Below are positions 1-61,800 of a DNA stretch of 64,000 nt, one piece after another. The notes under the pieces were generated by a model. It saw nothing but the letters and a program-made list of their open reading frames with translations. It was not told the DNA's origin and ran no database searches. Origin of the DNA: Phoronis australis (lineage: Eukaryota; Animalia; Phoronida); the NCBI GenBank assembly GCA_002633005.1, contig NMRA01000178.1, positions 696,410 to 760,409 on the forward strand, given 5' to 3'. Position 1 is the first letter of the stretch. Every line of letters begins with the position of its first letter. A program made the translations under genes and the position numbers.

Positions 1-1223
1 GGGTGTTGATTTCACCCAAAGCCGATTATGGGTCCCCACGTGCTCTATTACACCGATAGTACCTCATGTGATCTATAAAGCATCGTTTCGCTAAAGCGTC
101 CCCTGATCAAAACGTGCATGAGTGGCATGTAGTTCGAGTTGACGTCACTTAACTCGTACCAGCCTGACTCTTGCCAGGTTCGCAAGTTTAATTTTTTTAG
201 AAAACAAAGTTTTTGAGTTTGAAAAGGTTTACACATAATAATATTTTCGAGGATTTAATGATCCAGAATAGGTTTAACTAGGCAACTCTCATTCTGAGGT
301 GGTTTACCCACGATGCAACACGTGTACTATTCACTTTCATGAGTCTTCACCTCAAAATCACTATACTAGTCTCCATTTCGTAATATCCTAATTATTACGT
401 CAATTCATCTTTGGAGTGCAAAAAAATTTTCATTTCGAGTAGCACTGCTGACATATGAAATTGGCAAAAAGTGTTGTGAAATATCAGTGCTCAATCTGAT
501 GATCATCTGAGGAGATTCTGGCATTTTGAAAAGTAGCCCAGTTCAATCCAGTGGGGCAAATGGGTCTATTTATGGTATCTCATTCAATTTCCATGTGATG
601 TCACTTACAATTGAAGCTACGATTGGTGAGTTATAATAGATGAAATTTTCAGTGATGTGCTTATATTACTCAAGCTTCAAATTTCGTCGTCATTTGATCA
701 CTTGCAGACCTATTAAAATCATAGGGGACTTCTCACACTTTAGACGTTGATGCGACGTGAGACAGTGGTACTATTAATCACACGTCAAGAGAGGGTCAAA
801 AGTAGCCTGTTCCCAGAAAGTATCTCTAATTACTAAGCCAACTAAGATGCTCACTGACTGTCTGGCTCGACTTTGGAATCGTTGGACCAGCAACTCATTG
901 ATACTAAACAACAGCTTCAAAACTCCGACATTTCCATCCTGTGAAATTCCTAAAGAAGGCGTCACTCTCTTTCAATGCACAACTCGACTTCTGGTTCGTG
1001 AGCAAATGACGTACTTATCGGAAGTAAAACGTGCACCATACCTCGGCGCAGCTAGTGGGTTGTGACGTTGCGGCAGTATTTGTGGTCCATGTACCAGTTG
1101 TCTGTGCTGAAATTAAAGTAGCTTCTCGTTGACACAGCTGAGAATTATTGAATTTGTTACAAGAAATAATCAGTTTGGTTCTTTAATTTTGATTTAAGCT
1201 GGGCGTTCTTAATTTTACAACAG

Positions 1224-29960: not shown

Positions 29961-30800
29961 CGCGCAAGTTGCTGCTTGGCTGCCAGTACAAGAACTTGGT
30001 GAGGAACCGAATGTCATCATTGCTTTCAACAGGGAAGCTCGGGAATGGCCTCCTGGAGTAGCCCAAGCATTGTGCTGTCAGCAATGGCGTGATCTTGGCG
30101 GTATTAATGCCATCATTGTAGCAACTGATGGATCCTTCGATGGTGAAACTAATCGTGCGGGATGGGGCTATCAAATACGCTGTGCTAACAACGTCATTGC
30201 GGAAGGTAGTGGCTGCCACCATATATCCACAAGCAGTACGTGGATGGAGTTTGAGGCTATACAACGAGCCCTAACCAAGCTGTCACTCCTAGACCTGGAG
30301 AATCACACCATTATCTTTGCCACCGATTCCATGGCAGTGTTGATGAAAGTTCAATCTGGAAACCTCCCAGCCAACTGGGGTGTCTTCCGATCACGCCACC
30401 CTCATCATGTGGTGATCTGGTCTTTCGTACCTGGCCACGCCGGTGTCTTGATTGATGAGCGTGCAGATTACCTCGCTGGCTCATGCACCACCAACCAACC
30501 CCTCTACTTATATTCGGCTGACGTTAAGCTGCTGGCTCGCAAACGCAACCACGAGCAGACTGCATCCCAGCTGGCTGAGTTCAATGATGGCAGCCGCCTG
30601 CTCGAAGCCAGTATTATTTATGGCCATGCTGCGAAGAGTCACAAGAAGGGCCGTGCCCGAGTGCTGTCTAATCAAATGCTTACAGGCAACGTCAGCCCTG
30701 GAGTTCTGCGCCTTCTGCTGTCGTGGGGATGGTCTGGGGAGGGGATTAATGCACCAGCATATCCCCAATGATCCTGTCCGTGACAGGTATTACAGGTATT
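29961..30800 (+). mobile_element. 5'-truncated non-LTR retrotransposon (LINE, probably I-group) retaining an intact RNase H domain
   Basis: Direct repeat (TT)AAGAGTCGTGAT at 29947-29960 and 30799-30812 (TSD). RNase HI motifs ATDGS, MEFEAI, FATDSMA, FVPGHAGV, ERADYLA; stop at 30771; 3' hairpin CCTGTC-CGT-GACAGG and an (ACAGGTATT)x2 tail. Confidence 0.88.
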
Positions 30801-37800: not shown

Positions 37801-40800
37801 CAGCTCTCTTTCCAGGGCCAGAACGCTGGTCTTTGGATGTGAAGTCAACTCCTCCGGCCTCGCGGGCCGACGGTCGGTCTCCAACTCCAGGTGCTTCTCA
37901 AGGAAATTAATCCTTTCTTCATACTGATACTGAAACCAATAACATACTAATTACCCAATGCATTGAAGTCAGATGACTAACTCCAGCAGAGTGAGCTAAG
38001 AAGACTCAATTCTTTAACCTACGATTAAACTGAGTATAAAAGTAGCATTAAACCTGTGCTCTCTATCAAAAACAAAGTTTGCATTTTGGCCACCGACCAT
38101 AAATTTACAAATTTGATCTCAAATTGTTCCTTACTCAAATGATGAATGATTTCCAAGATATGGAACTAACAGTTCGTTACTTCTTCAGATGAGCTTCGTC
38201 TGAAGAAATAACTAATTGTCATTTCTTCCCGAGATAAAAGATCACTTCTAAACTGAGTAAGAAACAAAACAAGACCAAATGTACACTGTTATAACTTACA
38301 GTAGGTGGCCTAAATGAAAACATGGCTTTTCATAGACAGCTCAGGTTTAATGCCACTTCAAGTGAATTCCTCCTCAACCTCATCAGAGGCTATGAAGTTT
38401 TAGGTTCATTGTTAGTAACTCCATATTCAGTTCTGAATCATCCTTCTTCACTGGATTGTGTAGATTGAACATGTTGGAGCCTAGATAACTGCCACACCCT
38501 TTTCTATGACTGGCAGAAGCAATCCCATACTTTGCTGTTCACATAGATGTGAGCATGATGGCTGAGTGTCTGAGAATGTTTCACAATATCGCACATTCAT
38601 CTGCCTGCTTACTATGGTGAACAGTTCTAAGTATGAACAACATAAAAATGTGACTTGAGTTGGATAATCATATTTACTCATTGTTATTATTTTGTTTAAT
38701 ATAAATAATTTAATTGTAACAACTAGTAGTCAACTGTGACATAAGCGAGACATTAGTGGCAAGATTTGAATATCCATGCGCATGCCATGGGAATAGCATT
38801 TGAATACAGACCTTACTACACCAAGACTAGCCTAGGCAAGGTGCTTTACCCCACCCAAGTAACAAGTCAAGCCTATTCATAAAGGTATGCCCAAGTTAAT
38901 TGAGCATGTAATTCTGTGTTAGAAAATAGTGCGACTGTAATTATTTCCACCCGTCCAGTAGATCTTCTTGCATTGGAAACAGAAAGGGTGTGGTAATGCA
39001 CTGTCTGTATGTGATAGGGGATGGGGGTGTAAGGCAACTAACTTATAAGTCACGGGGAACAATGCATTGCCCTTCAAGATTAGAAATTGAAATTCTGCGC
39101 TGCCACAATAGTAATATATACCATGAAAGTTTTATGGCCTTTGAACCATGAAAGTGCTGGATCTTGCCAAACGACTGGATGTCTTAAATTCATTGACAAG
39201 TGAGCAGCAGACGTTAAACTGAACCAAGATGGCGCTACCTTTATTGCAGTATACTTCTGCTCCATGGCCCTCAGTTCTCTCTTTGTTTCCTCATCTTTTT
39301 CCTCCAATTCTTGTTCCAACTTCCTGTTTCTATTTTCCAAGAACTCCACAGTCTTTGTAGTTGTCTGCTGTCCGTCAGGCACCATACCCGCAGCCCAGAT
39401 GAGAGCGGGCAAAGAGTTGGGGTGCCTCTTCTTAATGATAGTTTCCATTTCTCTCACCTGGAATTGTCATGTGACGTTGCCGTCAAATGACCTTATATAG
39501 GCAAAGTCATTTTTTTCGTGATCAGTAATGTGAAAGTAATGTAAAGTCAAATAAACTGACTCTATCTCACGGAAACTAAACACTTTTTCCAGGATGTTAA
39601 CAACACAAATGTTTGACAAATAACCTGCGTAACCAGGTGTACCTGGATAGTTATGAGCGGGTCCCTTGCCCATTTCAGTACATGGCCACCGAAGCGAGAG
39701 GCCTCCAGAAAATGTTCATTCTGACATTGATACAAAAACACATTCCTCCAGACTGTTCAAAACACAGTCGGACAGATTTTACACAAAAGCAACTGTGCAG
39801 TACCTTTTTAATTAAGGGCAAGATCTCTTAAGCTAATTTACATGGCCACAACAAGATAAATTCAAAAGTACACTTCAAAAACATTTACCAGAAGAAAAGA
39901 ATTAGTCACATCAAGATCAGTTCAATACCTGTCTTTTCAAGTCTAAGATCTGCTTGGCATCCGTTTCTTTCTGTTTTGCCTTTGTCTTCTGTTCAACTAC
40001 TTGGCTGCCATGCTGAAAACAATCGTCTCAAATTACACAATAACTTCTGGCTCACCATAACACGAACCAGATTCTATATCATTAGAGTCAGGTGAATATC
40101 TCTGACATCAGGTTTACTATTGTGCAATCAAGGATGTGGTAACAACCAGATGATGAACTCAGGTTGTGATCACCATGCCCACTGTTCATAATGTCACTCA
40201 TGTGATCACCATGCCCACTGTTCATAATGTCACTCATGTGATCACCATGCCCACTGTTCATAATGTCACTCAAGCAGAACACTTAGCTTACAACTGTTAT
40301 TAAAATCTCTTGGTCTATTTACACCGACCTCTAGTTCATATACATTGTAACGTTTCGACGATGGCCGGAGAAGATGCCGACTGAAACGATAGTGTATATA
40401 GACTAGAGGTCGGTGTAAATAGACCAAGAGATTTTAATAATAGTTGTGATACGCCACCACCTCAGAGTGGTTTTAGGAAGTCAACACTTTGCTTGTTTAC
40501 CTAAAACTTCAATTTTGTATCTCACAAAACTTAGTCATCCAAAAAGGAGCAGCATGCAATTGAAATAATTGAATAGCAATTTAGCTGAGAAAAATAAATA
40601 GAAAATGAGAGAAATAAGTGACATTAATTTTTGAAATGCTGAAACATGTATACACATCAGATAGCAGCTTTGTATCTATCATAGCAATCTTTCAAAATGA
40701 CCTCGTTTTCCGTACACCAGACTCCATTGCTTAGAGTCTGGGTTCGAGTTAAAATGACACAATGTTTTATGACAAAAACCAGGAGAGCAGTTTATGAAAG

Positions 40801-43800
40801 TCATGATGGCTGCCCTAACATTGGTAGATGTTTCAGTCTTGAAAAATCAAAAAAGCGACATCCTCCATTCAACTATAATTATTGTTACACAAGACCACAA
40901 CAAAATAAAAATTATTTATTCAGTCATCTACTGTCACCAGAGACAGAAATGTGTCAATCACATGAAACTACCACCCACCTCCTTTTCAAGGGTGTCGATG
41001 TATCTTTTAAGTTTTCGTATTTCAGCATTCTTTCCTTTCAGCAGTTCGTTATCACGGTCCAGTATTTCTTGGTTCTCTGCGTACCACTTCAGTTTCTTGT
41101 TCAGCCTGTCAAGTTCAACTTCATACCTCTGCTGGATTTCCTAGAACAACAAATTTTAACAGAATAACGTTTCAACCAACTACAAAGTACTCCCAGACAA
41201 CACAATCATTCTTTGCCAATGAAATAATTTAGAAGGCAGCAATGAAATCACGAGATCTATGTAGTCTACTCACAGTAATCACAACGTGACTAGGGAATGA
41301 AATCAGCATATCTTTTTACTTAAAGGGGCATTTCCGTGCAGTTCAGCTGTCAATGTTGAATTCTTAACAAAAGTGCTTTCAATGGTGTTATTACCTTCAT
41401 TGAATTGTTGCCGAATGAGCCGGTAACTCAAGTGGCATGTGCCATTTTCGAATTCATAATATAAGGTTAGCCAACCCCCATCAACTCTATAGCGATTTGA
41501 TGTTCTTGTTGAAAATGGTAATGTATAAGCCATCTCACTTCACCTGTAACTCCTGAGCTCTGGCAGCTTTATTGTACTCATCTCTGTCACTCTCCCTCTC
41601 CCTGCTGTGAATAAGATGGTCTATCTGATCAGATAAGCATTTCTTCTCTGCCTCAAGTTTACTGATAGTCACTTCAAGAGAGTCCACCTTGGCCTGAAGT
41701 ACGACATTGAGAATTTGGGAGTTGGCTACATACGCACAGGGTCACCCAAGACCAGACCAGTGCTAATACCATTTTTTTTGCAAGAAACCGTAAAGCCCCT
41801 TTAATTTCAAATCACATGACTGAACTAGAAGAAATACATAATATATTCCCCTTAAACATCACCTCTAATCTGAGTGAAGAACAAGTTGATATGTTAACAT
41901 TTTATACAATCAGTGGTTCAATACAAAAAAGTTATTTTTTGGCAGAAGATGGGTTTAAAGCGCTGTCTTTTAGATAACATTCACTTACTACAACTAGATG
42001 ATAGATCTGATGTTTACCAACTGGGTCAAATTTTGAAAGACACAATAGCCAAAATCACAAGTTGAAGGTGTCCTTTTGTAAATGTCTACAACCACATGTC
42101 CCCTACCTTGGCTTGTCTCAGTTCCACATTCAACTCTGTAATTCTTCCAGCCCCTAGCACAGCGCTCCCTACAGGGCCTTTAGCAAACTGCTGCTGGGCT
42201 AGGGGGCTTGTTATTATCCCCTGACTTTTTAGTTCAGTCTCCTTCCTATCCAATGCTTGTCTGAAAAAGTAAAGGATTACACTACTTTCATTCACTCCTT
42301 CCCCTCATTATTGTACATTATGACTTTAACAGGTCTTTAATAGACATTCTCCCCATTGCCTTCTGCAGACTCTCCACATTCTTCAACCCCCTATACCATC
42401 TCACTACGCCCTCATTACCTCAGCTGGGTGACTTCAGTAGACAGCTGTAGGCTCTCCCTGAGCATTCTGTCCTCTTGTCACCCTCTGCAGTCTCTCTCCT
42501 TTCTTCAACCCCTAGACCGTCTTGCAAACCCCCCATTCACTACGCCCTCATTACCTCAGCTGGGTGACTTCAGCAGACAGTCGTTGGTTCTCCTTGAACA
42601 TCTTTTCCTCTGTCACCCTTTGCAGACTCTCTATTCTCTTCATCTCCTTATACAACCTCTCATTCTCCAGTTGGTAACCAGCTATCAGCCTCTCTTGCTC
42701 TCGCATTGTCTTCTCCAACAACTCGTGCTCTTTCTTGGAAACTTCTCCTTCCCCTTTCTCCTTTTCTAAACCTTTTCTATATTCACTCTCACCGGGGTCG
42801 TCTTCAACAACCTTAAAATGTCAAGATAAAAGTATGTTGAATAAGTGCAACGGACACATGTATGTTAAGGTCACCAGACACAGGTACGCTAAGTTCACCA
42901 GACACAGGCATGTCAAGTTGACCAGACACAGGTATGTCAAGTTCACCAGACACAGGTATGTCACGTTCACCAGAAACAGGTATGTCAAGTTCACCCGACA
43001 CAGGTATGTTCAGTTCAACAGACATGTACGTTTAGTCTCACCTACAGACCACTTTCCAAATTGTTGTGCCCAGTGAAAACATCAATGATAAGCAACCCAT
43101 TACAGGTCACTCGGTACATTTGTCTTTCATTAGCATAATGTGCTAGAACTAAGACCACTTACTGTTACAAAATTGGTCTCAAATTGAAGGTACTTTCAAG
43201 GTTTCGAAAGAACTACCAGTTTGTTATTTTTTTCAGACCAAGCTCTTAGCTGTAGGTTATTAGCTCAGTGTGAAAAAATCACAAACTGCCAGTATTCCAG
43301 AGTGCAGCGATCATTTCTGAACTGAGTAAGGAGCACAATAAGGCAAATTGTACAACATTAAGTGCCTTAAATCAAAAATTGTTTTTGACGGCAGGCATAG
43401 CTTTAATGCCACTTTAGGTCCAACGAACTAAATAAGAATCATCAATGCCAAAATATTAATCAATCATCAGGCTACAGGGCAGTGACCTCTGGTGATCATT
43501 TTTTTGTGGTAAGGGGGCACTGTGTGTGGTTGTAGTTTTTGTTCTGTTGTTAGATGCTTGCACATGGTAATAAATTTGCAGCGCAGGGTAAGCAGTTTGA
43601 GGGGGGTAGTAAGAATTCTGTTGCCTGCGGTGAGAAATAGTTTAAACCACCTGAAAAGCATGGCAGTCATTTCCACCCGTGCTGTAAAGTGTTAGAACTT
43701 GTCGCAAGATTCTAACTCTATACCCAGAGTGATAGAGTTAAGAGTAGAGGCAAGATTCACACTCTATAAACAGATGTCTAGAGTTAGGTGTGAAGGCAAG

Positions 43801-46800
43801 ATTGAAACTCCTTATACTCAGATTTTATGGACTTCTGGACCACTACATCACCAACCCACCAATCCAACAAATCTAGCAATAGTTCACTGAATCCTACCTT
43901 TGCTGCCAGGACAAAATTTTCTTGTTTCAATTTTAAAATCTCTTCTTCAAAGCGCAGTCGTTGCTCTTCAAGTCTATTGACGTGTTCCTTCTCTTGGGAA
44001 AACAAATCAGCTGAAACAAGCACAGGGTAATACACATGCAAACTCTGACACAAATAAGCCCATCATACCCATTAATTCAATGCTTAATACAGACAAAAGC
44101 ATCAACAAGTAATTAAATAGGGCCGTCCCGGATTACACAATGATAGAACTCTCCTTTGTCCCGGAGATAAGAAAGCATGTGACCTTGTTTTGTAAATCAG
44201 GCACATTTTTGTGTTTCTCAGGTGTTGGGGAGGCAAAACAATTTCAGATCACGCATTGACGGGTATTTGTCAAGTTTATCAGACTTTCTCAGGTCAGAGT
44301 TGCAGCCCAAAGCATGCAGTAAAATTTCATTGGCATTGGAAGGACGAATAGAATAATGCAACCAAGAAAAACTTGTGCAGACAACAACAAACAACATGTG
44401 AAACTCCAGTGGCATCATAAAGAGGCAGTAAATGTGCCTGATGGATGTTTACGACATTGTGGGTAAATACAGCGAGATTCAAGTGTCGCTGTTTAATCTG
44501 GGGCGGCCCTGTTAAGGACTGAGACTGGTTAACAGCATTAATCAAAAGGATGTCAAGACACCAACAGAGTAACAATTGGCTAGCGTAGAGTACTTCGTCT
44601 ACCTTTCATCTTTGCATGCAGTTTGCGTTCTTCCTGCCATCTCTCCTGCCATTCCTTGACCTCAAGCTGGAGTTCACGCTCCAACATCTTCATTTCACGC
44701 TCGTCTGTGATTGGACGATCTCGATCGTGGATTTGATCTTCGTCCAGTGCTCGTGACCGTGCAGCCTATTCAAGTACAAAGTATTGAATACATCAGCCTG
44801 TGCAGACTTTTTCGTACTGAAACGACTGTCCAAAAATAAATTTCCATCCTGACTGCCGAGACTAAAAAGAATTCACTGTCAGAACAGGGGAAATGAATCA
44901 CACTGCTGTGTACTACACCCACCTAATTCCACTAAACATTAACTCTTTTTCATTTGAAAAAGGGAATTTCCATCAATTCCCTTTCTGTGGAATTTTTTCT
45001 GCCCTATCATTAATATTTTTCATTGCATTTCAGCCCTTCTAACACATTCAGTGCAGAAATTTCTGCACAGAAATGTCTTAAAATCATTTTCTGCACTAGA
45101 GGATGTGTACAAATTTCTGCACTGAATGTGCAGAAATTGATATACAAAAATTTCTGCACTAGGGGATGTGTAGAAATTTCTGCACACGATGCTGCATAAG
45201 ACTGAATTGCAATGGAAAATACTAACTTTAAAGCAAACTGATGGAAATCTTGGGGCACAAAAAGGGAATCAGGGGAAATGCCCATTTAAAATGAAAACGC
45301 TTTTATAGAAATAGGCAAAAAATTAATAGATATTAATAAATCTCTTCTGAACCAGTTTTTCACAAAATATTTTTCAAAATGCAAGAACTGATTACCTATA
45401 CCCAAGTTTAACATTTGAGAGCTTGTCTGTCTGTAATACCGCATTCAGCTAGATACAATAATTGTCAAAAAAGTAGACAATTTGTCTGGATATGTCAAAG
45501 TTATGGGAAAAACAGGCTGATTCTACCAAAAATAACACTGTAAACAATTTAAAATTAGGGAAAAACTTTTGCCTTTGGTTAGAAGTTTCGACACAATTTT
45601 TGACAAAAACAATGACCATGAACTTATTGAAAACTACAACACTGTAGCTTCACTTTTAAGGTTTTCAATGAGCTGTAAGAACCGTCAGTTCCAATTGTCC
45701 GTTACGTCTATTGACTTACACTAGAGGTTTTCTTTGATGGGGGAGTGTTGAAGTGATCTTGAATGTATTCAGCGAACGCCTGGACTGATGCTGTTAACTG
45801 GCTCTCTTTTATCGTAGCCGCGCCACTGGCAGGGGGACGACTCAATACCTGTGTTCCTTTGAAAATGAACAGGTTACAATAAGGGAATATCAAAGGCAAG
45901 CCTGAGAGGACTTCTAAATTAGTTTAGTTCAGGTAAAATATTTGAACACAAGACAACAGCATGGGGAACAAGAGGATATTTATTTCAGTCCTCATTTTTC
46001 AAAACAGTTAGACCATTTTTCAAGTTCTATAGAATGATGTTGTCACTCGACATTTAGCAAAATTGTGGGAATTTTAATGCAAGAAATACATGTACCTGAG
46101 AAATGAATATTAAAAAGTGCATTTTTTTACATTTTTTGCTGAAATTGGTGAGAAATGTTTTACAGAATGAGCTTATAAACTTATTAGTAATGCATCAGAG
46201 CAGGACTTGTGGCGGGCATGTTTCATTTTTTTGAAAACATACTTGGCTAAATTTAAGAATACTTAATCAAATTCTTATTTGAAACGATATACACGATTTT
46301 ATTTCTTATAATGGGAAATGTTAGTTATGGAACACGTCAAGTTACAGCAGGCATGAAATTAAAACCAAAATCATTGTACACTGTCTGCAACAATTCTAAG
46401 CATTGCAAAAACAATGCCATTGTTGGTGATGTCATGAGTCAATAAAGCATGATGTCACGGACGTCTGCCATTTGATTATTGTCTGGCCTATTAATGGTAA
46501 ATAGCACAATGGAGAACATGGACTCAAAGGAGAGCAACCTGCAACAGGGTTATAGCATATCCAAACATTCAGACTTCATGCTGAATAAACAGGAACAGTC
46601 AGAGAGCAATGGTCTGAATGAGACAGGCTGCCAGAAAATCAAACGAATGGTTCGCCAAGCTTTTCAAGTAAGCAATCTAACTGTCTAACAAATGAGCTCT
46701 TTTGCAGGGGGTTAACATTACACAAAACATTTAGTAATTCATCACTGTTTTGTGATAGTTCTACTTCATGAAATTAATGTTCGATTTTTTAAGCATGAAG

Positions 46801-49800
46801 CAACAAGGTAATACTGTATAGCAGCCTGCTGCACAAACACTATCCACTATTAATTAGACATTTTAGAGGGCTATTTCTTTGAAAAAAAGAAATATAATAC
46901 TCCTTTCTTATTCTTATAATAGTTGCTTAATAACCTTCTTTCCTTTATATTCACACAAATTTCTATAAAAACACAACAGGTCAGAGGTTTACAAAACCCT
47001 TAAGGTTATGTGCGACCTTATCGATAAGCCTGACGTGTATTTACTAGCCAAATAACAACAAAACTAAAGAACTTAATCCAGTAAAAGTACATAATATTTT
47101 CTTAAAGTAGCTTGCAGAATTTGACATTTGACTTTTTAATAAACTGACATTAATTGAGTCATGTAACCAGGCTTTTTTCGTAAAATTCAGCAAAAAAGGA
47201 AGTTACATCGATTGCAGAACTACAGTATAATAACATGACCAAATTGCGTCAACTTTTAATTGATAATAAATGTTCAAGATAAAATCTAAACAACACTGCA
47301 ATTTTCTAAACCATCTNAACACTATCCACTATTAATTAGACATTTTAGAGGGCTATTTCTTTGAAAAAAAGAAATATAATACTCCTTTCTTATTCTTATA
47401 ATAGTTGCTTAATAACCTTCTTTCCTTTATATTCACACAAATTTCTATAAAAACACAACAGGTCAGAGGTTTACAAAACCCTTAAGGTTATGTGCGACCT
47501 TATCGATAAGCCTGACGTGTATTTACTAGCCAAATAACAACAAAACTAAAGAACTTAATCCAGTAAAAGTACATATTTTCTTAAAGTAGCTTGCAGAATT
47601 TGACTTTTGACTTTTTAATAAACTGACATTAATTGAGTCATGTAACCATGCTTTTTTCGTAAAATTCAGCAAAAAAGGAAGTTACATCGATTGCAGAACT
47701 ACAGTATAATAACATGACCAAATTGCGCCAACTTTTAATTGATAATAAATGTTCAAGATAAAATCTAAACAACACTGCAATTTTCTAAACCATCTTTAAG
47801 TTTGCGGTTTCAAATTACACAATTTTTTTAGTTAAATGTTTACAAAAATCATAGCCCCTTGTGCAAAAGTGGAAAATTTTGAAACCAATTTCTAACTGCA
47901 TTTTGGAGAAGAGTTCACAAATTATGGTGACTAGAAGTTTAATATGAATCCAATCAGCCATTTCTGAGATATGAAAATTTGTCAAATTTTACCATTTTTC
48001 GAGGTTCCTACATGCTATAACGTTAAGAAAACTGCAATTCATAACATAACAAGAAGGTAGAGTTGGCGTATCAATCACTTCAAAAGTACCATAACAGTAA
48101 CTAGGCTAACCTGCAGTACAACACATTAACTTCTGGTATTGTCATATTTTTATAATCTGCTCCCAGTCTATGACATTTGCAAGCAATTCCATGATCAATC
48201 CAATGAATTTGGTAAAATTGGAGCACAAAATAAAATGCCCAAAGTTGTGCTGAATTACAAAAATTTTACCCCAGAAAAATCTTCAAGGCCATTGGAACTC
48301 AACCTTTCATGACCTTCACTCGCAAATTCAGAGATGACTGCCAAAATGACTAGTAATAACCAAAAATTCCATGGGTTTGTAATCATAATTAAGGGATTAA
48401 TTGTGAAACTGGAAGTACCAGCTGGTTGTAAATAGGAGGAAGTTGCAGCCCCCCTATTTTCGATTAGGTGTTACTTCCGGTTTCACAGTGGAAGAACAGT
48501 CACGTGATCAAGGGCCTGAGCTGCAGGCTTGAAACGTTATGCTTAGCTAACTAAATGCCTCCTAGTAAGTAATTTTTCTCGTTTATACCATAATCACAGG
48601 AGACAGCGATGAACATTTTAACTATAAACTAATTTTGTAAGTTATAAAATATAGAAACAAGTCACAACATTTGACCCGGGTACAAAGAGTAAAGTTGCGT
48701 GACCTTACATATTCTAACAATAGTCATGGTAGAAACATTGCCCATCAAATGCCAATGACCTCATGTGAAGAAACAAGTGTGAAATTTTTTATAAAATCGT
48801 GTTTAGCTTTAATTCCAAATAATCCAGAAAAAACAAGGATTCAGCAACTTCAATTAGCCAAGAACTAAAAACATTTTATAAGCTTTTCAAAAATCCTTTC
48901 AGGCTTATACTTAAACCAATTACAAGCAAGCATGAATGTCAAGCTACCTTTGGAAGCCAGCAATCGCAACATTTCGCACTGGAAATGTTAAACTCATCTC
49001 CCCACAACAGCCCAACATTAGATTTAATTTCCAAAATGTTTATCTTAGGGACGTTACTTTTCCCATGTCATTCAAGTCTTCCCTTCTTTTTTCATACACT
49101 CAGAAGATTTAATACTTGGCTTTCATTTACAGGGGCGGAGGTCAGGGCAGAGTATTAGCCAGGATTTTGCCCGTCAGACATTCGCACCTTCGAACTGCCA
49201 AATGGAATCTGATCAACACCACACACCGTGCACTTCGCAACCCATAAGACACCCCAGGTTAACCCGGGTTGGTTACACTGACTGACTTCTCAAAGCCAAC
49301 TGAAACTGCCAAGTGGTGGTCTACCATTACAATCAAAACGCTTGGCAGCACTTACAATGTATTGATTAGTTTTAAACAGAGTCTGATGATTTTTCCTACT
49401 TTCAGGCTTCTGACAAGTACTCAACAGCTTCGAGAAGACTGTTCAAAAGTAAAGTGGCCCTGGAGCAGGAGAAAGAACTGCATGAGATGGCCAGCACCAT
49501 AGACCAGTATCTAGTGCATCCATTCAGCATCCTAAGGCTTGTCTGGGAGATAATCATGATCATGTGTATCCTTCTCTACCTGTGCCTCACGCCCCTACGG
49601 GTAGTCTACCATGGAACCAAAAACACGGAGTCTACCCGGACTTGGGTGGTGATGTGTTACATCTTACAGGCAATGCTGTGGTTTGACATTATCATTAATT
49701 TCAGGTCCGGTTACCTAGAAGATTACACACGCAAGGTCATTATGCAGTCTAAAGTGGTCGTCATTCACTACTTGAAGACCAGTTTTCCCGTCGACTTCAT

Positions 49801-52800
49801 TTCGTCTGTGCCGACATTTATTGAGCTGACGCTGCAGAATTCTGGGATAGACTGGGTGACAGATAGTGCCGAGGAATACAACCACAAAGCTGGGAAGATT
49901 TATTTGATCTGCGGTATGGTACACGTCTTCAGCTTATTCAACTTCTCCCGTTTGTTCCGCTACTTAAAGAGAATACAGATCCTATTTCACTTGCCTGGCC
50001 GAGTCTGGCGTATCCTAAATCTCATCCTCGTGGTCACAGTCGCTTCCCACTGGAACAGCTGCTTCCAGTTCGCCATTGCATCTTGGGAAGTCTTTCCAAC
50101 AACCAGTTGGATAGTCAAGAAAGGACTACTCACAAAAGGCATCCCAGAAATCTACGCTCATAGCATCTTCAAGACGTTTTCGCACATGCTGAGTATAGGT
50201 TACGGATATTTTGCACCACAGTCGACGCTGGAAACGTTAGCCACCATAGTCAGTATGCTAATTGGCGCCATCTTCTACGCCATGTTTGTCGCTGACTTGA
50301 ATCACATGGTAATGCAGTCTGATACGGCCGGTAACAAGTACGACGAGAAGATCGAAGAAGTAAAACAATTCATGACATACCACAGACTGCCGAAACAGTT
50401 CAGACAGAAAGTTATACAGTACTACGATACAAAGTACAACCAACAGTATTTCGATCCTCATACTATGCTACAAAAAATTAATCCAAAGATAAAGGCACAA
50501 ATCATGTACTTAATATGCAAACAGTTAGTAGTGAAATCGAGCCTATTTGAAGACGCTAGTAAAGATTTAATAATGGATTTGTGTAGTTATCTACATTATG
50601 AGATATTCATGCCAGAGGACATTATAGTGACTGCTGGACACAAGAGCAAGCACATGTACTTTATAGAACATGGCCTGGTGCAAGTATCCAAAGGGGACGA
50701 CACAGTGGTGATGAGCATGGGAGATGGAACTCACTTTGGAGGTAGTGTAACAGCAAGTAACATTCATAGAGCAGCGTTCAGCTTCCACGTGTTCCCCACA
50801 CCCTTGTTGCCTTAAAGAATTTATGGTAACACAAACAGGTGACATTCAGCAGACTAAACTGACCCACGCAGTCGAACTCTAGTAGGGAGAAATAGATCCA
50901 TATGAAAAAAAACATCTGAGATATAGTAGTAAGTAGCACGTGATTTCTACAAGTCAACGTCGACAAATGATACTTTGCTGACAACTGGCAACCGTGAGTG
51001 GCATAGGAGGACACCTTTGACTAGATGAAAAATCTCATTTGGCATGAACTAAAATTTAAATTGTTTCCCAAGGAAAACTAACCATAAAATATTTGCGAGG
51101 TGCAAAACACTTAATACTTGTAATTTCACAAAAGATTTTTTCACATGTTCTGACAGTCAACATCAAAAAAGATATTATTTAACTTCCGACCTTCAGACTG
51201 GTAAAGAAAATCAAATGAACAGTGCAACGTCATTCAGAACTATTTTAAAGATGACGTTATAGTAGACATGAGCTACAGTAAAAATTCTACATTTTGGGAC
51301 ACAATATGGCGAACATGAGAAATTTCACAAATTACAAAATAAGTTTCAGAAAAATTTACTTTGCTTTTAGCATGTTTATATGACATGACGTAGCTATTGT
51401 CAAACAACATTTGGTAAAATTTAGAGCGTTTGCAATAACGTGATAAGCCTTTTAAAAAATAGAATGTCAATTTTAGCAATTATTTGCGCACCAAATTGAA
51501 GAATTGTTTCCATTAAAAGCAAAATGTTAACTGTTATGCCTCTTAGTCAGTTGGAACAGTTACTCATTAATTCTAAACTGTCACTCTCCTGTTCTAAAAC
51601 TGAAGAGCCTACATTTGACTGGTAACAGTCATCCAAATTTGATAGGCAAACCTTTTTGCAACATGGCTTTAACTAGTTCAAGGCAATGAATTGACAACAA
51701 AATAAACCGTAAGATTTACTGACCCACTCACAACAGATGGGCTACGTCAACCCCTAAAGTCAAACTTATTGAAATAACCCTCGCACACAACAAATCACTG
51801 TCATCACACACACACACACAAACACGCACGCACGCACGCACACACACAGGGACTGTGTTTGTATCTACATCCAAACTAATAGTGATGATGCATTAACCAT
51901 AGATGGTCATCAGTCATGTGTTAAAAAGTTTACTTTCATACGATCTCCATGATAGCAAGTAGCAGCTTATGTTAATAAAACAACAACGGATATAAACCAG
52001 ATTGACATGCTTCAGCGTTTATTAAAACACCATCATCAGAATCATGAAGATTAAAAAAAAAACACATTGGCCACCTTGCTAGGCCCAACCACAAGTAATG
52101 ATACACAGACACAGTCAGTTACAAGGAGTAACAATAGACTAGACTAACAATGACAACCTGTGGTGTTCCAGTTGCTTATTGAGATTGGGCTTGCACCAAT
52201 GGATGTGTAGAGCTTCGCGAATTTAAAGCTCCTTAGTTTGTTGTTTATGCTTGGTCTATTACAGCAAAGTCATAGAAAGAGCATTGCTCATAACAATGAT
52301 TGGAGCTCTGCAGATGAATATTAATATGTGAACTTCTGTCAGAATTTAGATGTTCCCTGGTCCGGGATTACTTTCATATTTTCATATACTACAGAGATGT
52401 CCCTGATCTATGATGAGACATCAGAGGTGACCGTTACTGCCAGTGAAACAACACACACCTACTATTTAACCAAGGAGGACTTTGAACAGGTAACAAAATG
52501 CTTTCTGTTCATCTTTCAAACTTGAAATCGATTGTCAGATATCCAACTCACAAATTTATTGTGAGAGACAATTAGTGAAGTGTAAAATCTTCACTTTCTT
52601 TTGGCTGATGTCGTGGTGGACCAGCCTATTTTATGTTTTTTGATGTGATGTTGGACCAGTCTATTTCACGTTGTACTGATGGGAAGGACGACCAGTTATA
52701 TTGAAGATGTGATGATGTTGATTTTGGGCCAAATAAGCAGTAAAAAATGTTTCTATACGGGTACATTAATGTAAACACATAGCATACACAACAATTGTGC

Positions 52801-55800
52801 TGGGGTTTCTTCTCAAGATGTGATGCTGGACCAGTCTATTTGACAGTATACTGATATGATGGTGGACCAGTCTATATAAAATTATACTGAATGGATGTGA
52901 TGTTGGACCAATTACATAATGATTATACTTAGCGTTGCTCTCAACAATTATTCTTCTAAACTCAATTCCTTTTATTCAATAAAAATTCCGGAGGTTGACA
53001 GCTGTATCACATATACATGGTCTGTAGTCAAGAATCCCATGATGCAGCATGCTAGAACTGAGTGCACTTTCTTGTCACTCACATGCTGTTGTGATGGCAA
53101 CGGATAAATGAGCAGTATATAGTCATAGGTAGCCAATAAAAAATTCAATATGCAAACGTGACATTGACCCAATAAAAAGTGGCCAAAGTTGATGTGGACC
53201 ATTATCTGCCCTATAGAAAAGAACACACAATCCAAGCACCTTATCTCCACTGAATAATGTCACAATGTGGTATACATTCAGCTCAGATCGATTACCACAT
53301 GTGTACTCAAAACGCTCACATCTTCTCATCTTTATAGCTAATGTTAATGCATAGTGGCGCTAGAGATCACATCTTGGACATAGTGACGGAGCGGTGTGAA
53401 GCCACTCGTGTACAGACCGAGATAATCCAGAATAAGCTCAAAGTGGCCGTCTCACATGTTGCCTTGGATACAGACTCTGTAACGTCACTTAGAGATCACA
53501 AATCTCATCAAAAGTCGAGGTTTGAAGTGCTGCACATCAATTAAAAAGCTTGCCTATGCACAGCTTGGTTGAATCACATGCGGACGCACACTGACAGCCA
53601 TGGATGCAGTGTATAGGAGTGAGCCAGTGAACAACATATAAAAGGCAAAGAGCGAGGCGAGTAGAGATATGCCTGCTCTCAACAAGAGAACAACCTGTTT
53701 ATAGTCACTCCAGGCCTATTACAACAACATGAGGAAAGTACTCACGTATCAAACTGAACACTATGTGTTCACAGAAAGGTCTCTTTTTGTTTCATTGTGT
53801 GCTAAATTGTATCTTGAGGTGACAAATGAATGTTATCTAAAGTAGTCAAGTAATGATTATTAAACTGTTTATTAAAACAGTATAGAGGTCACAAAGTGGC
53901 TAACCTTTAACCTTTGACTTTATTGTGTTTGCTGGTGACCACGACACTTCCTGTTTATGATGCTTGCTGGGAACCCATCGCGGACCGTACCCGGAACTTT
54001 TGACATCACTGTATTTTGTGCGGGATTTCTTTTTAGCAGGGTGGTAGTCATGTGACACCTGTCGAGGCTTTGGCAGTTGTTTTGAGGGGGGCAACTGTTG
54101 TTTTGAGGGGGGCAACTGTAAATGACAGAAGCTGACACAATTGATGGCAAAGCAATGAGTATCTTTTTAATGTAATATATAACTGTAACCTTCTTTAACA
54201 TTAAATATTGAATGCAACATAAAGACAGCTACATGTAACTGTTGGAATGACCAATGACGAAAAAAGAGGAAAAATTTCCAGGTGATGTATTTATTGTTCC
54301 ACAAAGAAATATATTTTTGTGATAGAAATATATTTTGTGTAGTAAAATTTAAGTGAAATAAACATTTTTTCACGAATAAAGTAAAATAATGATAAAAAGA
54401 TGCAAAAAGAGGAAACTGAAAATCAAATAAAAGGAAATCGAAATCAAAAAAAGAGGAAAATCCTCTTAAAAAAGGAAAATTCCAAGCTACAACATGGAGA
54501 AGACGTCTAACTCTTTGATAGCATCAAATATTGAAAGATGATAATCTATGCACATATAGCTCCCATTGGCCCTATATATTGCTCACGTTGACCCTATATA
54601 TTGCTAACACATTGACACACAGCCTTATGTGCTTTTTATTGTTATGTGGAGCACTGTTCGTTTACTGAGCAAGTTACATACAAGATATCTGTACCTCATC
54701 TCCATGATTACCATCACTGCCATCGTCAAGGGGCAAAAGGTCAAATACACTTTTCTCTTTGGGTGATTTCACAGCCCCTTCCCCATGGTCCAGAGTATCA
54801 ATACCAAGACGTGTAAGGCGCTCGGTATCAGACATTGACTGCTGAGATCGTCGCTCTATTTCTTCGACCTCTCGAAGTATGTCTTCAACTGTGCGCGGTG
54901 GCTTCCCTAATAAAAAATGCACACTATTTTAAGCGCATACGAGGAATTCCAGCTGAAAATACATCCAGGGCACATGTTTGGGCTAGAAAACAAACATCCA
55001 TTAGTCTATGCTTTGGACTTTCAAGGAATATCTTGCTATTGCAACTGGAACATAGTTTTACAAGATGACACCACGGGGATGATTTAATCAGGTTTCTGTT
55101 TCATGAAAAGTGACTTAATTCTTAAGACAGAATTTGAGTCTTACACTCCGCATATTAAGTATATTTCTGAAAAATAATTAAAACTATTTTTAGAAAATGA
55201 ACAAAGTAACTGAGAATAGACCAACAACTCATACTTACTGAGAAAATTTGTACAAATTATTTCCAGCTAATTATGGGCTAATAGTTACAGGACTATATTT
55301 GGTAGGTCATGAAGTAGGAGTGTAAGACAAAATTTCTGTCTTAAGTCTTTAAGTCACTCTTCAGGAAACAGAGCCCAAAAGCCTTGTGACATTGCACATG
55401 TCCAGCACACAACAACCAGATAATGTAAATCACCGAGTAAGAAGCTCATTCACTAAGGTCCCCCATGGTTCCTTCTAAACGTACAACGCAGCAGAAGATG
55501 CCAAATTATGGCTTAGTTAAAAATGTGGCAAAAACCCGCATGGTAACTTGACAACAGGTGGACAATAAATATGTGCATCGGCTTTAAGGTTTGTTCAGAA
55601 ATTTTGACGATATTTGACAAAAAGGGAATTAAATAAATGTAAACTTGTGTTTAAAACTAACTGGTGGTTCACTGAAGCTTGCCAATTGCCTTCCTCTTAT
55701 TAATAACTGCATTTCAAAGTACCTGCATCATGGCCTGACATAGTTTTCATTCCAAACTCCTCAGTCTCCCTATATTGAGATGATGTGCTCTCTTGTCTAT

Positions 55801-58800
55801 TCATAGAGGAAATATTTCCTGTTGTATTGGTTGGCCCCTCGCGAGTACTCCCCAAGGTTGACATGCCCACCTCTTGTAGCGCCCTCTGTAGCGCTGCTAT
55901 TTCTTGACTGGCAGTGTCGGAGTAGCCGTGGCCTGGACGAGGTCAAAGTTGAACAGATCACGACCAGGGCTCTAATCTGTGTACTTGAAATTGTTTATGA
56001 CTTTTTAAATGTTTCTTTAGTGCAAACTCAGCATAAGTGTGCACAAGTATATTATGGTTTAAGCATATGAGTAGCTTTTCCCAGTTTGCACTTAATGACC
56101 GCTAGGATTTGAGCTACAAAATTTCAAGTAAAAAGTTTAACTCAAGATTTTGATTTCAGGCTCAGACGTATAGCTATAATGCTGGGGTCATCAAGTGCAA
56201 AGTATGATTAGCCCATCATGCAAAGAAAGCATAATGTACTCAAGCCCAGTACAATAGACACACAAAAGTAGAACCTAAAATCATATGTTAAAATAATTTT
56301 GAGTTCAATTTGGAGTAGAAAGGTTAGACCCTGGGCCCAGTTGTTTTGGAAACCAATTTATTGATCACTTGGTTTGCTAACATCTTCTAAACAACAGATG
56401 AAATGACAGAATTGCGCCAAAAATATCATTTAAACAAATCAGTTTGAATAAAACTCGACAAATTATAATATACAATGTGTTTGGAAAACATTATCAAGTT
56501 TCGGCTACACGTTTAACGCAAACGCCAACATGTGAGGTCAGCATTCTTTGCTTACTGGGTCATAATGTTGACCTATATTTTTGTATTCAGTTTTGTCACA
56601 CGGGAGGGGGGGGGAACGACGCAAAGACCACTGTTCTCATGTAAGTGCAAAATGTGAGTTTTAATTGCCAATCTATCGTAAGAGATCGTCAGACGTATGA
56701 AACTTTTAAATGTTTTTAGAAAGCTTAGCTATCCAAGAGATGGACTGGGTGCATGTGACTTATTCGGTTGATTCTTTGAACTATGACCTTTGTTCTACGG
56801 CTCTCCTCACATTGCTGATTTTTCCAAGAAAAGCCATAGTAGGTGGTAATAAGTGACACAGAGATGGTGTACTCATACTTCATGCCAAAGCATCATTCTC
56901 AATTTAGGTAACTTTACATGAAAACAAATAAGAGGAATGCTTTGAATATCATACATATTCAAAGCAAGCAGTAATAACTAAGAGCTTGTAAATTAAACAC
57001 AGATCTTTTTTTTCAGTGTATTTTTGCTCAAAACCACTATAGTGATAAGTATCTGAAAAGATAATAGCTTAGAATTTATAACTGGGATGTTGACTGTTTT
57101 CACTGGGTGCAGAATATAATGATGTCGCCACGGTCATATAATTTACCCCTCCTCCGGGTTGCGAGCACGGTTTCACGCATTGCGGTAATCATCAACCAGT
57201 TGCTGGTAACAGTCAGCTTTATGTGTCCCTGATGTCAGAATAACAGGCGTTATTCAATGGAAGTAACTGGTTCTGAAATCAGGAAAGAATTCGGGACCCA
57301 CAAAACCTATGCTAGTCAGTTGTGTGACGGTGTTATCCTGCCTGCTGACAGTTTGTCCATTTTCTTGTTACCTATACCAAGTCTCTCCCGCCACTGCCAA
57401 TTCATGTGCCGCCACTACTGAACAGTGATTGTCACCAAAGTGTCACCCCGCTATTGGCTATTGTGTAACCCTTCTACAGTCGCCTTCGTGTCTAACGTGT
57501 AGCCGAAGCTCTCTAATGAAACTCATGCATATGCAAGAGTGAACTTGTGACCTCTGGTGACGTGTAGCCAAAACTCTTTAATATCAGAAGTAAGAAACTC
57601 ATTTTCAGTACCTGGTATTAAAAGATTTTTATAAAAAGTCGTGGAATCCAATGATTTCACACGAATGACCACACAGAACGTGATCAAACTGTACCTGTTC
57701 CTACAACAGACTTGGAGGTCACCTCTGGCCCATGACTCATCTCATTCTCCTCTCCCGTGTCTCTCACTGCCCGGGTTCCCAGTGTGGAGTCCATGGTTGA
57801 CTCCATTAAAGACACTCTAGACAACATGCTAGGCTTTTTGACATCACTCACCAGGGTGCGCTGTAATCACATCCAAAGCAGGAACCCACAGATTAAGACA
57901 TTTTTATTTGGACAAGATAATTTTACAACAACACTCATCATAACAATGGCATCAATCTCCAATTATATATTAAAATTAAAATTGCTTCAGGTAAACATTT
58001 CGTGAAAAATCATTTTTAAATGTTGAACCTTTTAACACTTCTTTTCAATTGCTCTCAAAAACCAGTAAAATCCAAATACTGATCTTTTGGTTGCCACTGG
58101 ACATAAAAAAACTACGACAACGTCTGTTATTTGTGTAATAGCCAACGGTAATAAGAATTCAAGCGAAAGTTAAATTACCGAGTTATCTTTGCTGGACTGT
58201 TCCTCTACACTGTCTTTGGCCTCTACACTGTCTTTGGTCTCTACACTGTCTCTGACCTCTACAACAGGCTTCGTTTCTTCTGCTTCAAACTCATCAGAGT
58301 ACTCTTCGTCATCTTACAGGGGAGATAAACACAACTGTCAGTAGGCAACAAAGCTTCACTACAGAAATAGCAGCTTAAACAAAACTGTTTGAAACCATTA
58401 TTAACAAAAAATCTTGAAAAATACCAGCAAGACTTAACATTAACAATAGCCGATGGCCTGCCAGCAGGTAATTTTTGCTGCCAGGCAATTGAAATTTCTA
58501 AGTAGCATAGCGACTTGATTTGAACAGTAAATCTGTATGTACAGAACTAAATGCTACACAACAGAACTTAGTAAACAACTCGGTGATTGTTGACCTTACA
58601 ACTCAATAATTTATTAAAGCAAGATTTTCCTGAAGCCAAGTAAACAAAAAAGTTTGTGTTAAATCTTGACAAGTGAACCAAACAATAAAAACTTGAACTG
58701 CTCACTCTTGTTGAATCCCAAGAAAGGATAATAAATAGAACCTTATTTCCATTTTACAGAAAGGCAAAATTTTAGGCCAAGGTTTGATTCATCGTCAGTT

Positions 58801-61800
58801 ATGTCAAGCTCACAGTAACAAGATTCTACACTTGGATGTGAATAGTACCTGAGACGTGTCTTGTCTGTATCATTGTGTCACCAGGAGTAGTCGCTGACAT
58901 GTCCAGTTTTTTGTTCAGTTTCGAATAGTCCAACGTTGAGTCTGCTTGATCTTCCAGTTCCTGGTAGTAACAACACAGAGTAGAGAAGTTCTTAACCAAA
59001 TTTAAAGTGCAGGAAAGTTGTTATTTTGTGCAATTTGTAAAGACTGATACATGCATAACAGTATTCAGGAACTATGTTCCATACTCGATAATTGACCAAT
59101 AACACAGCATGCTTCCAGAAACTATATACAATTTTGTACTCGAATCATGCCGAATGATTGGTTAAGTTTCAAGTTTGAGTAGAGTTGGAGTTGCAAGATT
59201 AGACGAGGACTTGCAACTTGTTCAGAAACTTAGAACACATTCTGCTTCCTTCTAGAATTGGACAACTTGGGCTCATGCACAGTCACACTTTTACACTCAA
59301 GTAGATTAAATCTATAAAGTATAATTTAACAATTTCACAATATTCTGTTGACTGTGAGGCAACAAGGCGGCGGACGAATGCATAGAGGAGAGCCAGAGGC
59401 AGCCAGCTGCCCAGCAAGACTAATCGGAGATCAGCTGTCCCCACCAACCATCCACCCATCTTCTAAATGCCCAGACGTAACCCATTTGACAAAATACTTG
59501 TCAACTAAGCATAAGTATTTTAAAAGCATTCTGTGGCTATTCAAGGGTATTTTAAGATGGTCAACAGATTACAATAATGTAATAACAGTAACTATCCTCA
59601 TTTCATTGTCCACAGACAACATTTTCCTAAACGCATTGTGGCCTTATTTACCTTGAAGAACCTTTCCTTGTCAGCTTGTTCATCAAGCGTGTCAAAACCA
59701 GGCCGTTGTCTTTCACTTGGTATTTCGGAGGTCGTGTCTTCCAAGCTAGTCTCGACCAATGTGGACCTGAACAAGACAAAAAACCAATCATCAGTTCATT
59801 ACTCCATAATGATCACAGCCAGGATCTAATATTCAAATTCACAGAGCCTAACCAATCACGTCACATTGTTTGAGTACAAATTTATGACTTCATTCAAAGC
59901 GTGACATGTAATTGGTCAATTTTTAAGTTGAGTCGTGAGCACACACATCTGGAAGCAGATTTAAGTAGACAGCACACCATCATCAAGTCACTCACTGTTT
60001 CTGAAACTCATTTCTACTTTTGCCCGGATAATCCTCGAGACTGTCTTTGCTCATTGAAATGTCTCCGATTGTCGTTTGCAGAGTGTCGGCCATGTCTCCA
60101 CTTCCTGTTCGCCGAACACGAGGCCTCGGAGTAGGCTCGGGGGTAACTGTCTTACTGGGTTTAAGCAAGTCGGCTCTTTCATCTTCCTTGGCAGTGTGAT
60201 CAGCAGTTCCACTGGTCTTGAGGAAACTCTTCACATATTTTTCAGTCCCTTTCTTGGGTTTGAGGAAGCTTTTTTTGACAACAGAACCTGTATTTGAAAA
60301 GACACAATAGCACTTGTCTAGGGAACTCAAAGTGAACAGTGGAGATTCCAGTTTCGCATTTTAAAGTCTTGTAAACAGATGGATAAAGTTCCATGTAAAC
60401 AGGTATTCCTGATCAGCAAGTTTCGAGTAAGTCTCACCAGAAAATGTTCCACTTAAGAATTCTGTTATGATTAACCCAAACCTACCATACACATAAGATT
60501 TTATAGGAAAATGTCTAATTTTGGAATACCATATCTCAGAAATAAATGATCAGATAGTATGTGAAACTTGCACACACTACGCTTTAGACACTGTTCTAAA
60601 TAGGACTGTTAGAAATTGTTTTTAAAATGTCCAACTTCTGCTATCAAAAAATAAGACTTTTCTGATTTTTAAGAAAAACTCAAAAATTGTATTAAATGTT
60701 ACAGAACTGTAACCGCAGTGTTCTTCACGGGTTGTTATAAGAGGGCGCTTCGTGATTTGTTTAACAAGGCGCTTCAGGGACTATTATAACCGGCTGCTGC
60801 ATGTGTTGTTATAACCGAGCGCTGCTTCATGGGTTTTTATAACAGGGCCCTTTGCCCACTCTTCATTTCAGCTGTTGACTAAATGCCCCTTTTCAATACT
60901 ACCACCCTCTTGCCCCCCCCCTTTTTAATATGTTTAGATAGCAAATGTTTACCTGCCCTATTTTCACTCCTCATAAATCCGGATAAGACAATCAGTGCTT
61001 ACAATGTTAAAGATGCATGGAGCATGAAAATTCGTAAAAAATATCGTTTAAGCAAAACATGTCAAATCTACTTTTTCTAGGAGGCTCTAACATGACAGTT
61101 ATTCACATTGAATATTGCAAGAACATCAAGAAAAAATCATCCAAGTCACTTTTTTGAAGCGCAGTCATAACATAAACTCTTTCATGCCAACAGACATTCA
61201 AATTCTCCGACCCTACTGATATGATATGCGTTCATGCACTCAAAGAAGTCCAACTGGCTTTTGCTTGAAATCGCCATTGCTTTGTTTACATCAAGGATCA
61301 CATTCTCCACATAAGGGAAATGTGCTACGTCTATGTCTTGCCATACCAAATAAGCGGACATGCTTTGCCCTGTGGGAGAAAATTTGACAAAGTGACGAGC
61401 AGTTGACAGATTGTTCTTTTGAAATTTGAAACTAAAGGAAAAATGCTTTGACAACAGAAATTCAAAATCTTTACGAACAGTTAAAATACCTGAACAGTTT
61501 GACTTTTGTTTCAGTGGCAGAGAACTCCTTTGAATAATGAAATTTAGTCTATCTTACGCATTCCAGGCCTCTTGAATAATTCCTTCTCTCACTGCAGTAA
61601 TCAGCCTGAGACATAATAGCTGAAGAGAGTTCTTTTCCAATCCACCCCAATGCCAGTAACAAAAATGCACATCTTTCACATTAAATATTCCCTGTCCCAG
61701 CAAAGTATAGACAAATTCATTTCAAGTTTAGGGGCAATATGCTCAGTATGTAGCACATACCAACTGTAATGAAAGCTGTCAAAGACAACCCCCTTATCTA

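Follow-up and report, generated by a model that had tools for sequence, protein, structure and literature searches.

The locus and its surroundings

The window analyzed here is a stretch of 64,000 nucleotides from Phoronis australis (contig NMRA01000178.1, positions 696,410 to 760,409 of the forward strand), with positions counted from its first letter. A four-exon gene of the HCN channel family is found on its + strand (46494-46667, 49406-50741, 52395-52489, and 53338-53544), with an intact open frame of 603 codons and three introns that are all canonical (GT..AG). This gene appears to be nested antisense in one of the introns of a large coiled-coil gene, which extends over 31846-60360 on the - strand. 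The coiled-coil gene may be CEP162, a name given from the look of its C-terminus and for which no confirmation came from Pfam or Atlas. The features of the two genes are as follows:

31846-32118, 35175-35690, 39080-39466, 42551-42820, 44580-44765, 54674-54928, 55700-55942, 59992-60360, - strand: open reading frames of the coiled-coil gene
46494..46667, + strand: channel exon 1, the part coding for residues 1-58 (supported by an open reading frame with a GT donor; start codon inferred)
49406..50741, + strand: channel exon 2, encoding the HCN domain, S1-S6, pore, C-linker, and CNBD β1-β6, residues 59-503 (Pfam, HCN1 match, RNA, and fold model)
50742..52394, + strand: intron 2, 1653 nt, GT..AG, phase 1, splitting the codon of E504 (RNA junction, 5 + 3 reads)
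52395..52489, + strand: channel exon 3, encoding the remainder of the phosphate-binding cassette, β7, β8, and the B-helix, residues 504-535 (RNA junctions on both sides)
53338..53544, + strand: channel exon 4, encoding the C-helix with R554, a short tail, and the stop codon, absent from the preliminary description (RNA junction 52489/53338)
53545..53870, + strand: 3' untranslated region, end approximate (sense reads to ~53800; ATTAAA at 53859 and 53871)

Near-identical tandem copies stand on either side of N at 46836-47795 and 34619-38395 (481 nt at 98.8% and 1269 nt at 94%, respectively). They are likely haplotype duplications of the assembly, one of them being inside the first intron of the channel gene. 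Dispersed repeats are found at 49143-49211, 51274-51514, 51950-52363, and 54242-54480, where they draw many RNA reads that are 90-95% alike, and one of these repeats stops ~30 nt before the exon 3 acceptor.

Splicing and expression of the channel gene

RNA reads from four runs with the same species label (X1-X4) were aligned on 47900-55100, exon 1 being outside this region; the unaligned ends of reads before exon 2 (4 reads in X1, 5 in X2) match the 3' end of exon 1. Exon 2 ends at 50741 with a GT at 50742, and exon 3 is flanked by AG before and GT after. The splice from 50741 to 52395, previously proposed from the letters alone, is confirmed by RNA-seq in two of the four runs, with 5 sense-strand reads from 5 starts in X1 and 3 reads from 2 starts in X2, and no reads across this junction in X3 or X4. 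A stricter read alignment of X1 and X2 repeated this junction and added 52489/53338 (2 + 4 reads). Exons 2 and 3 are thereby joined in phase 1 to give F502-G503-E504 and, further on, D510 E511 T512 S513 E514 V515, while read-through of exon 2 into intron 2 leads to a stop after 24 codons; the slight read depth just 3' of the exon 2 donor may come from unspliced RNA. An assembly error or a wrong splice at the exon 2/3 border was considered and ruled out, as the RNA reads agree. A six-frame scan of the 64-kb window for R-[TSN]-A gave 3 short chance matches (18867, 22856, and 63480) and revealed no other exon at or around the gene that could supply an Arg cassette. Given the RNA junctions together with this absence of an alternative Arg exon, S513 and E514 are real and spliced into the transcript. 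No second HCN gene is found within the 64-kb window.

The RNA depth on exon 2 is 3-9 in X1 and X2 over 49346-50791, and up to ~11 in the stricter alignment. Exon 2 shows two variants, a silent one at 49676 (still Leu149) and G298V in 4 of 12 reads of X2; for exon 3, where the depth is only ~2-5 reads, none is listed. At an input similar to that of X1 and X2, no reads were found on exon 2 in X3, which hints at an expression limited to certain tissues or stages.

Regarding exon architecture, S1 to CNBD β6 are all carried by the single 1336-nt exon 2 (49406-50741). In vertebrate HCN genes, the region from S1 to the CNBD is divided over several exons, so that a partial intron loss or a retro-derived origin of the phoronid gene is possible.

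Family assignment and relatives

Exon 2 displays the Pfam Ion_trans and cNMP_binding domains and matches human HCN1 with an E-value of 5e-79, CNG (1e-35) and KCNH (1e-25) being far behind. Exon 3 aligns to positions 52-85 of Pfam cNMP_binding with an E-value of 0.0027, a match that falls short of the curated cut-off, and its peptide alone retrieved only 2 chance antibody matches from the PDB. The AlphaFold2 model, which covers the exon 2 part only (residues 60-503, 54-row alignment), has a mean pLDDT of 85.7, and S4 forms one long helix in it. The folds it resembles most closely are those of HCN1 and HCN4, with TM-scores of ~0.8 (0.80 for HCN1). With its HCN domain, S1-S6, C-linker, and CNBD, the gene thus belongs by descent to the HCN family, in sequence as well as in fold. 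Its selectivity filter is retained:

50192..50206, + strand: selectivity filter SIGYG, residues 321-325, intact (read from the sequence; Ser there in 17/22 clade B rows)

Clade B, as it is called here, is a second bilaterian HCN clade composed of echinoderm, hemichordate, brachiopod, nemertean, and annelid channels and standing apart from canonical HCN. The members P0003, P0004, P0006, P0175-P0185, and P0187-P0189 exhibit an S-I-G-[YF]-G filter and a D-E-R-R-V-A cassette; further members of the group of P0003 were gathered by profile search. The phoronid gene falls inside clade B with a support of 100/99 in IQ-TREE analyses of both 58 and 38 rows, and among its spiralian members, again at 100/99, in the latter, from which near-duplicates, some other close relatives, and the long branches P0051, P0045, and P0042 had been dropped. 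Its grouping with 15 canonical HCNs was rejected (AU p 0.0006). The branch of the gene is very long, its 1.7 changes per column comparing with a median of 0.28, and in a 190-row FastTree, itself unstable, the gene was joined weakly to other long branches, so that a long-branch caveat on the clade B placement stands.

The gene is 35-37% identical to its nearest named relatives (Lingula XP_013401461.1, Tubulanus XP_074659485.1, and Owenia), and it has in common with clade B the S-I-G-[YF]-G filter, the D-E pair of the cassette, and a short C-terminus. Unlike the gene, which has none of these residues, clade B harbors the cassette Arg in 22/22 rows and each of the central S4 charges in 21-22 rows. 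With canonical HCN1-4, spHCN, and Ih channels it shares the domain order, the exon 2 fold, the GYG filter, F-G-E, and the C-helix Arg, but it is ~30% identical to them, has no counterpart of R591 or of the QWE motif, and is missing the four central S4 charges as well as the Asp and Phe of S2. The closest match obtained with HMMER among 1.84 billion representatives was P0003 (the Lingula protein) at only 37%, and a word-seeded search for orthologues gave 0 matches among 1801 near-length and 132 shorter candidates, which leaves their absence unproven.

The sea urchin channel SpHCN2 has the filter SIGFG, and its selectivity is given as unknown (PMC9614928). Clade B is probably the clade of SpHCN2, an assignment made from this filter only. 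No functional study of clade B was found in the literature searched, in which most subscription papers were not covered, and the available parts of PMC12749960, PMC7212895, PMC3487815, and PMC4640657 hold nothing on the gene or on clade B.

The phosphate-binding cassette and the C-helix

The alignment of the gene to HCN relatives is gapless across the cassette, where two stretches of derived and inherited residues can be distinguished:

52412..52417, + strand: D510 and E511, an acidic pair inherited from the clade (D/E in 20/22 and 19/22 clade B rows)
52418..52429, + strand: T512, S513, E514, and V515, derived changes replacing the R-R-V-A of the clade (R/K 22/22, R 22/22, V 21/22, and A 22/22)

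The column of HCN2 R591 is occupied by Ser513 and that of HCN2 T592 by Glu514. The loss of the Arg that binds the cAMP phosphate, with Ser and Glu at these positions, had been put forward in the preliminary description and is borne out by both the reads and the alignment. It does not hold, however, that a Thr was replaced by Glu, the residue of the gene's own clade being Val (21/22). In the counted set of 189 of 265 fetched proteins (each shorter than 1500 residues, with E <1e-35 and an alignment that spans 280 residues or more and extends to the cassette; near-duplicates included), the Arg column holds R in 170/189 relatives and 22/22 clade B rows; when a one-residue slip is allowed, 13/189 relatives are without Arg. 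By alignment, the loss of the cassette Arg is thus recurrent among HCN-like proteins. Divergent HCN-like proteins devoid of it are P0073, P0075, P0118, P0137, P0149, P0241, P0246, and P0256, most of them with a charged S4.

The cassette had also been described as having turned acidic (DETSE). While E514 is indeed new, D510 and E511 are already present in Arg-bearing clade B relatives, and the shift in charge comes mainly from the loss of two Arg and the gain of one Glu. The resulting net charge of -4 is the lowest of 190 rows (-2 to 0 in clade B, with -1 in 16/22). The counterparts of HCN2 E582 and R632 are kept, with G503, E504, and the C-helix R554 (codon 53392-53394); the R632 column holds R in 164/183 ungapped relatives. 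Other columns of the C-helix region are changed (A>V551, L>C555, and P>S541). No [YF]-x-L motif, as expected of a KCNH-type intrinsic ligand, is present after residue 535.

With regards to ligand binding, R591 and T592 of HCN2 contact two oxygens of the cyclic phosphate, and once HCN2 is liganded a salt bridge connects the equivalents of E504 and R554 (PMC6785730). According to the same source, R591A raises the Kd for cAMP from 0.09/1.39 to 1.65/33 μM (~20-fold), with a Kd of ~320 μM for cGMP, and T592A lowers the affinity for cAMP ~7- to 8-fold, binding occurring at 0.6-12 μM. The R591E mutant is reported as unaffected by 10 μM cAMP (PMC2233656). Rat EAG1, where the cassette Arg is also a Ser (Ser630), does not bind cyclic nucleotides (PMC5806680), its pocket being filled by Tyr-Asn-Leu (PMC5806680; PMC5299623). 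By analogy with these mutants, Ser513 alone would leave a weak cAMP binding, whereas its combination with the adjacent E514 and the loss of the invariant Ala would very probably bring binding outside the cellular range. The earlier claim that the channel does not respond to cAMP or cGMP can therefore be retained in part: a loss of physiological control is likely, but a complete loss of binding would depend on E514 and V515, since a neutral residue at the Arg position alone does not abolish binding (HCN2 R591A).

The voltage sensor

The segments S2 and S4 are altered as follows:

49667..49678, + strand: S2, with Q146 for the conserved Asp counter-charge and L149 for the charge-transfer Phe (alignment of relatives)
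49886..49960, + strand: S4, with K219, K222, R240, and R243 kept, L225, G228, S234, and N237 replacing four basic residues, and H231 at the Ser gap

A classical HCN has a long S4 with ~eight spaced basic residues, but only 4 are found in the gene and none of the central four. Among the 180 relatives scored (9 being gapped), 155 have all four of these central charges, 16 three, 8 two, 1 one, and 0 zero. The S2 columns hold D in 167/175 and F in 153/175 ungapped relatives, and in 21/21 clade B rows. The simultaneous loss of the S4 charges and of the counter-charge looks like a co-evolution toward an uncharged, folded domain. Where S4 ends, the QWE motif, one of the elements that keep the HCN gate shut (PMC7078272), is altered as well; the R260/D364 pair of the closed state and N263 are retained.

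Selection versus decay

In a conservation pool of 87 canonical and clade rows, the gene keeps 78/130 conserved columns versus 67/364 variable ones (p 5e-18). By region, the conserved columns kept amount to 23/28 in the pore, 12/16 in β1-β6, 19/32 in S1-S3, 10/20 in the C-linker, 5/9 in the cassette, 5/12 in S4, and 3/7 from β8 to the C-helix. The pore differs from S4 (p 0.02) and shows no significant difference from the cassette (p 0.18); pore and β-roll core together keep 35/44 conserved columns versus 43/86 elsewhere (p 0.001). By these counts, the pore is the part under the strongest constraint. In a simulation of neutral decay by random substitution, 0/500 copies were free of stops at 20% divergence, and a long decay is therefore excluded.

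Possible modes of action

The likelihoods attached to the readings below overlap and do not sum to one. The reading to which we give a chance slightly short of even is that of a background K+/Na+ channel insensitive to both voltage and cAMP, in which the CNBD would serve as a structural ring. It is drawn from the pore being the most constrained part, from both sensors being without working residues, and from HCN2 pores tending to constitutive opening when uncoupled from the sensor (PMC3406610), as HCN pores likewise tend to open in QWE mutants (PMC7078272). On the side of the ligand, the cyclic phosphate would lose its salt bridge through Ser513, Glu514 and Val515 would add repulsion and bulk at the phosphate subsite, and the affinity would very probably leave the cellular range; the domain would be retained as a C-linker/CNBD ring, KCNH-like but without an intrinsic ligand. 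On the side of voltage, the charges of S4 would have gone together with the Asp and Phe of S2, giving a folded, largely uncharged sensor that most probably has little voltage dependence. The QWE motif being changed too, the pore would not be held shut and would conduct constitutively, perhaps tuned by lipids or pH, which is the weakest step of the mechanism and could fall either way.

Several observations stand against a background channel. G503, E504, and R554, for the ribose and base contacts, are kept, and HCN2 still binds cAMP in the micromolar range when its Arg is exchanged for a neutral residue. Erosion of the cassette does not significantly exceed that of the pore (5/9 vs 23/28, p 0.18), the C-linker keeps only 10/20 conserved columns, and four basic residues of S4 persist at the ends of the helix. 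Moreover, with R260/D364 and N263 kept, the gate could equally be locked shut, and a conserved pore would equally be expected of a modifier subunit. Finally, no orthologue was found, S513 and E514 being known from one species.

This modifier subunit is the main rival, a doubtful but sizeable possibility. Silent when alone, it would lower the cAMP response and the gating charge of heteromers formed with a canonical or clade B HCN. This would fit with the pore and β-roll core being the best-kept parts (35/44 vs 43/86, p 0.001) and with the retention of R260, D364, and N263, and HCN subunits are known to co-assemble, Arg-mutant subunits shifting the gating (PMC2233656). It fits less well with half of the conserved C-linker columns being changed and with the absence of a partner HCN gene from the 64-kb window. 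The earlier suggestion that both gating inputs are lost and that another stimulus must be sought is upheld as to the S4 changes, which are real and extreme, but a stimulus is not required if the channel is ungated or a modifier subunit.

That a new stimulus (a cation, pH, or a built-in phosphate mimic in the form of Glu514) read by the acidified CNBD opens the channel appears rather unlikely. If true, a CNBD would here have become ligand-free or re-liganded along a third path, independent of those taken by KCNH and HCNL1. In one form of it, considered quite unlikely, the pocket would be re-purposed for a new and possibly cationic ligand, or for Ca2+ or H+, gating the channel. The cassette is the most acidic of 190 rows (net -4), and G503, E504, R554, and 12/16 β1-β6 columns are kept, but D510 and E511 are ancestral in Arg-bearing relatives, the shift is mainly due to two lost Arg and one new Glu, and there is no orthologue in which the new residues are conserved; for the cationic ligand proposed earlier, nothing speaks beyond net charge. 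A precedent is found in the zebrafish sperm channel CNGK, which has kept its CNBD and moved from cyclic-nucleotide to pH control, with an Arg-to-Ala change in repeat 2 (PMC4749565). CNGK is, however, a pH-gated K+ channel of four repeats, whereas the gene encodes a single repeat (PMC4749565 for CNGK).

In the other form, which is very unlikely, the channel would be self-liganded in a novel way, Glu514 mimicking the phosphate and E504-R554 holding the C-helix as if liganded, so that the channel would be permanently in a cAMP-on state. E514 does stand at a phosphate-contacting column, and E504 and R554, the pair bridged in liganded HCN2 (PMC6785730), are kept. Against this, the C-helix region carries the changes A>V551, L>C555, and P>S541, and the modeled part ends at residue 503, before the geometry of the cassette. 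As for self-liganding of the known kind, also proposed earlier, it is contradicted by the absence of the Tyr/Phe-Asn-Leu motif after the C-helix.

It is likewise unlikely that a weak cyclic-nucleotide sensor persists that would respond only at tens to hundreds of micromolar. R591A and T592A of HCN2 still bind cAMP at 1.7-33 and 0.6-12 μM, respectively (PMC6785730), and the ribose and C-helix contacts are kept in the gene; yet three adjacent conserved positions are changed together, one of them to an acid, and the invariant Ala (22/22 in the clade) is now Val.

A further reading, highly improbable, is based on the fish proton channels HCNL1 and HCNL2, which are HCN-derived, insensitive to cyclic nucleotides, and altered in S4 (PMC7306766). 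A neutralized S4 (L225, G228, H231, S234, and N237) would open a path for protons or cations through the sensor domain, as in HCNL1, where the replacement by Met of just the third S4 Arg makes a proton pore and cyclic nucleotides are ignored (PMC7306766). The HCNL1 Met column corresponds to L225, and the His lies in the middle of the helix. However, HCNL1 keeps its other S4 charges and the S2 Phe, is still voltage-gated, and has a dead filter, while the gene shows the reverse, with four charges and the S2 Asp and Phe gone and SIGYG intact (PMC7306766 for HCNL1). In terms of HCNL1/2 hallmarks, its filter is not degenerate, and the third S4 position is Leu, not Met, with three more charges lost. 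Just as improbable is that the gene is a paralogue on which selection has relaxed, or which died recently, the changes representing decay. The long branch (1.7 vs a median of 0.28), the low read depth, and the failure to find an orthologue would allow this, but the intact 603-codon frame, the three canonical introns in use, and the conserved columns kept far above background leave only a recent loss of function.

Regarding KCNH channels, the Ser at the cassette Arg is shared with rat EAG1 Ser630 (PMC5806680), and the CNBD of the gene likely resembles a CNBHD in not binding cyclic nucleotides. The gene nevertheless differs from them by the absence of the Tyr/Phe-Asn-Leu intrinsic ligand and by its HCN-type pore and C-helix. 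In addition, no Pfam PAS match, as for an eag domain, is found on exon 2, to which exon 1 adds only 58 residues, and KCNH channels retain voltage gating, unlike what is predicted for the gene. By sequence, the gene therefore falls outside classical HCN, KCNH, and HCNL alike.

While the cassette change has precedents, what stands out is that both inputs are lost together and the pore is retained, a combination unseen among the relatives examined. No report of such an invertebrate HCN was found in the literature searched, most subscription journals being outside its coverage. The protein would offer a natural test of whether an HCN pore is open or shut once freed from sensor and ligand, and of the role of a CNBD deprived of cAMP as well as of a KCNH-type intrinsic ligand. 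The gene also draws attention to the second bilaterian HCN clade. The weight of these points is limited by the gene being known from one species at low read depth.

Other features of the window

Exons at 1170-6950 on the + strand encode what we take, by resemblance, to be the von Willebrand D and TIL domains of a mucin-like protein. An intronless open reading frame of 383 codons lies at 10835-11986 on the - strand and is presumably DxD glycosyltransferase-like. On the + strand, 29809-30771 holds an open reading frame of 320 codons, which by resemblance we assume to be the RNase H domain of a retroelement.
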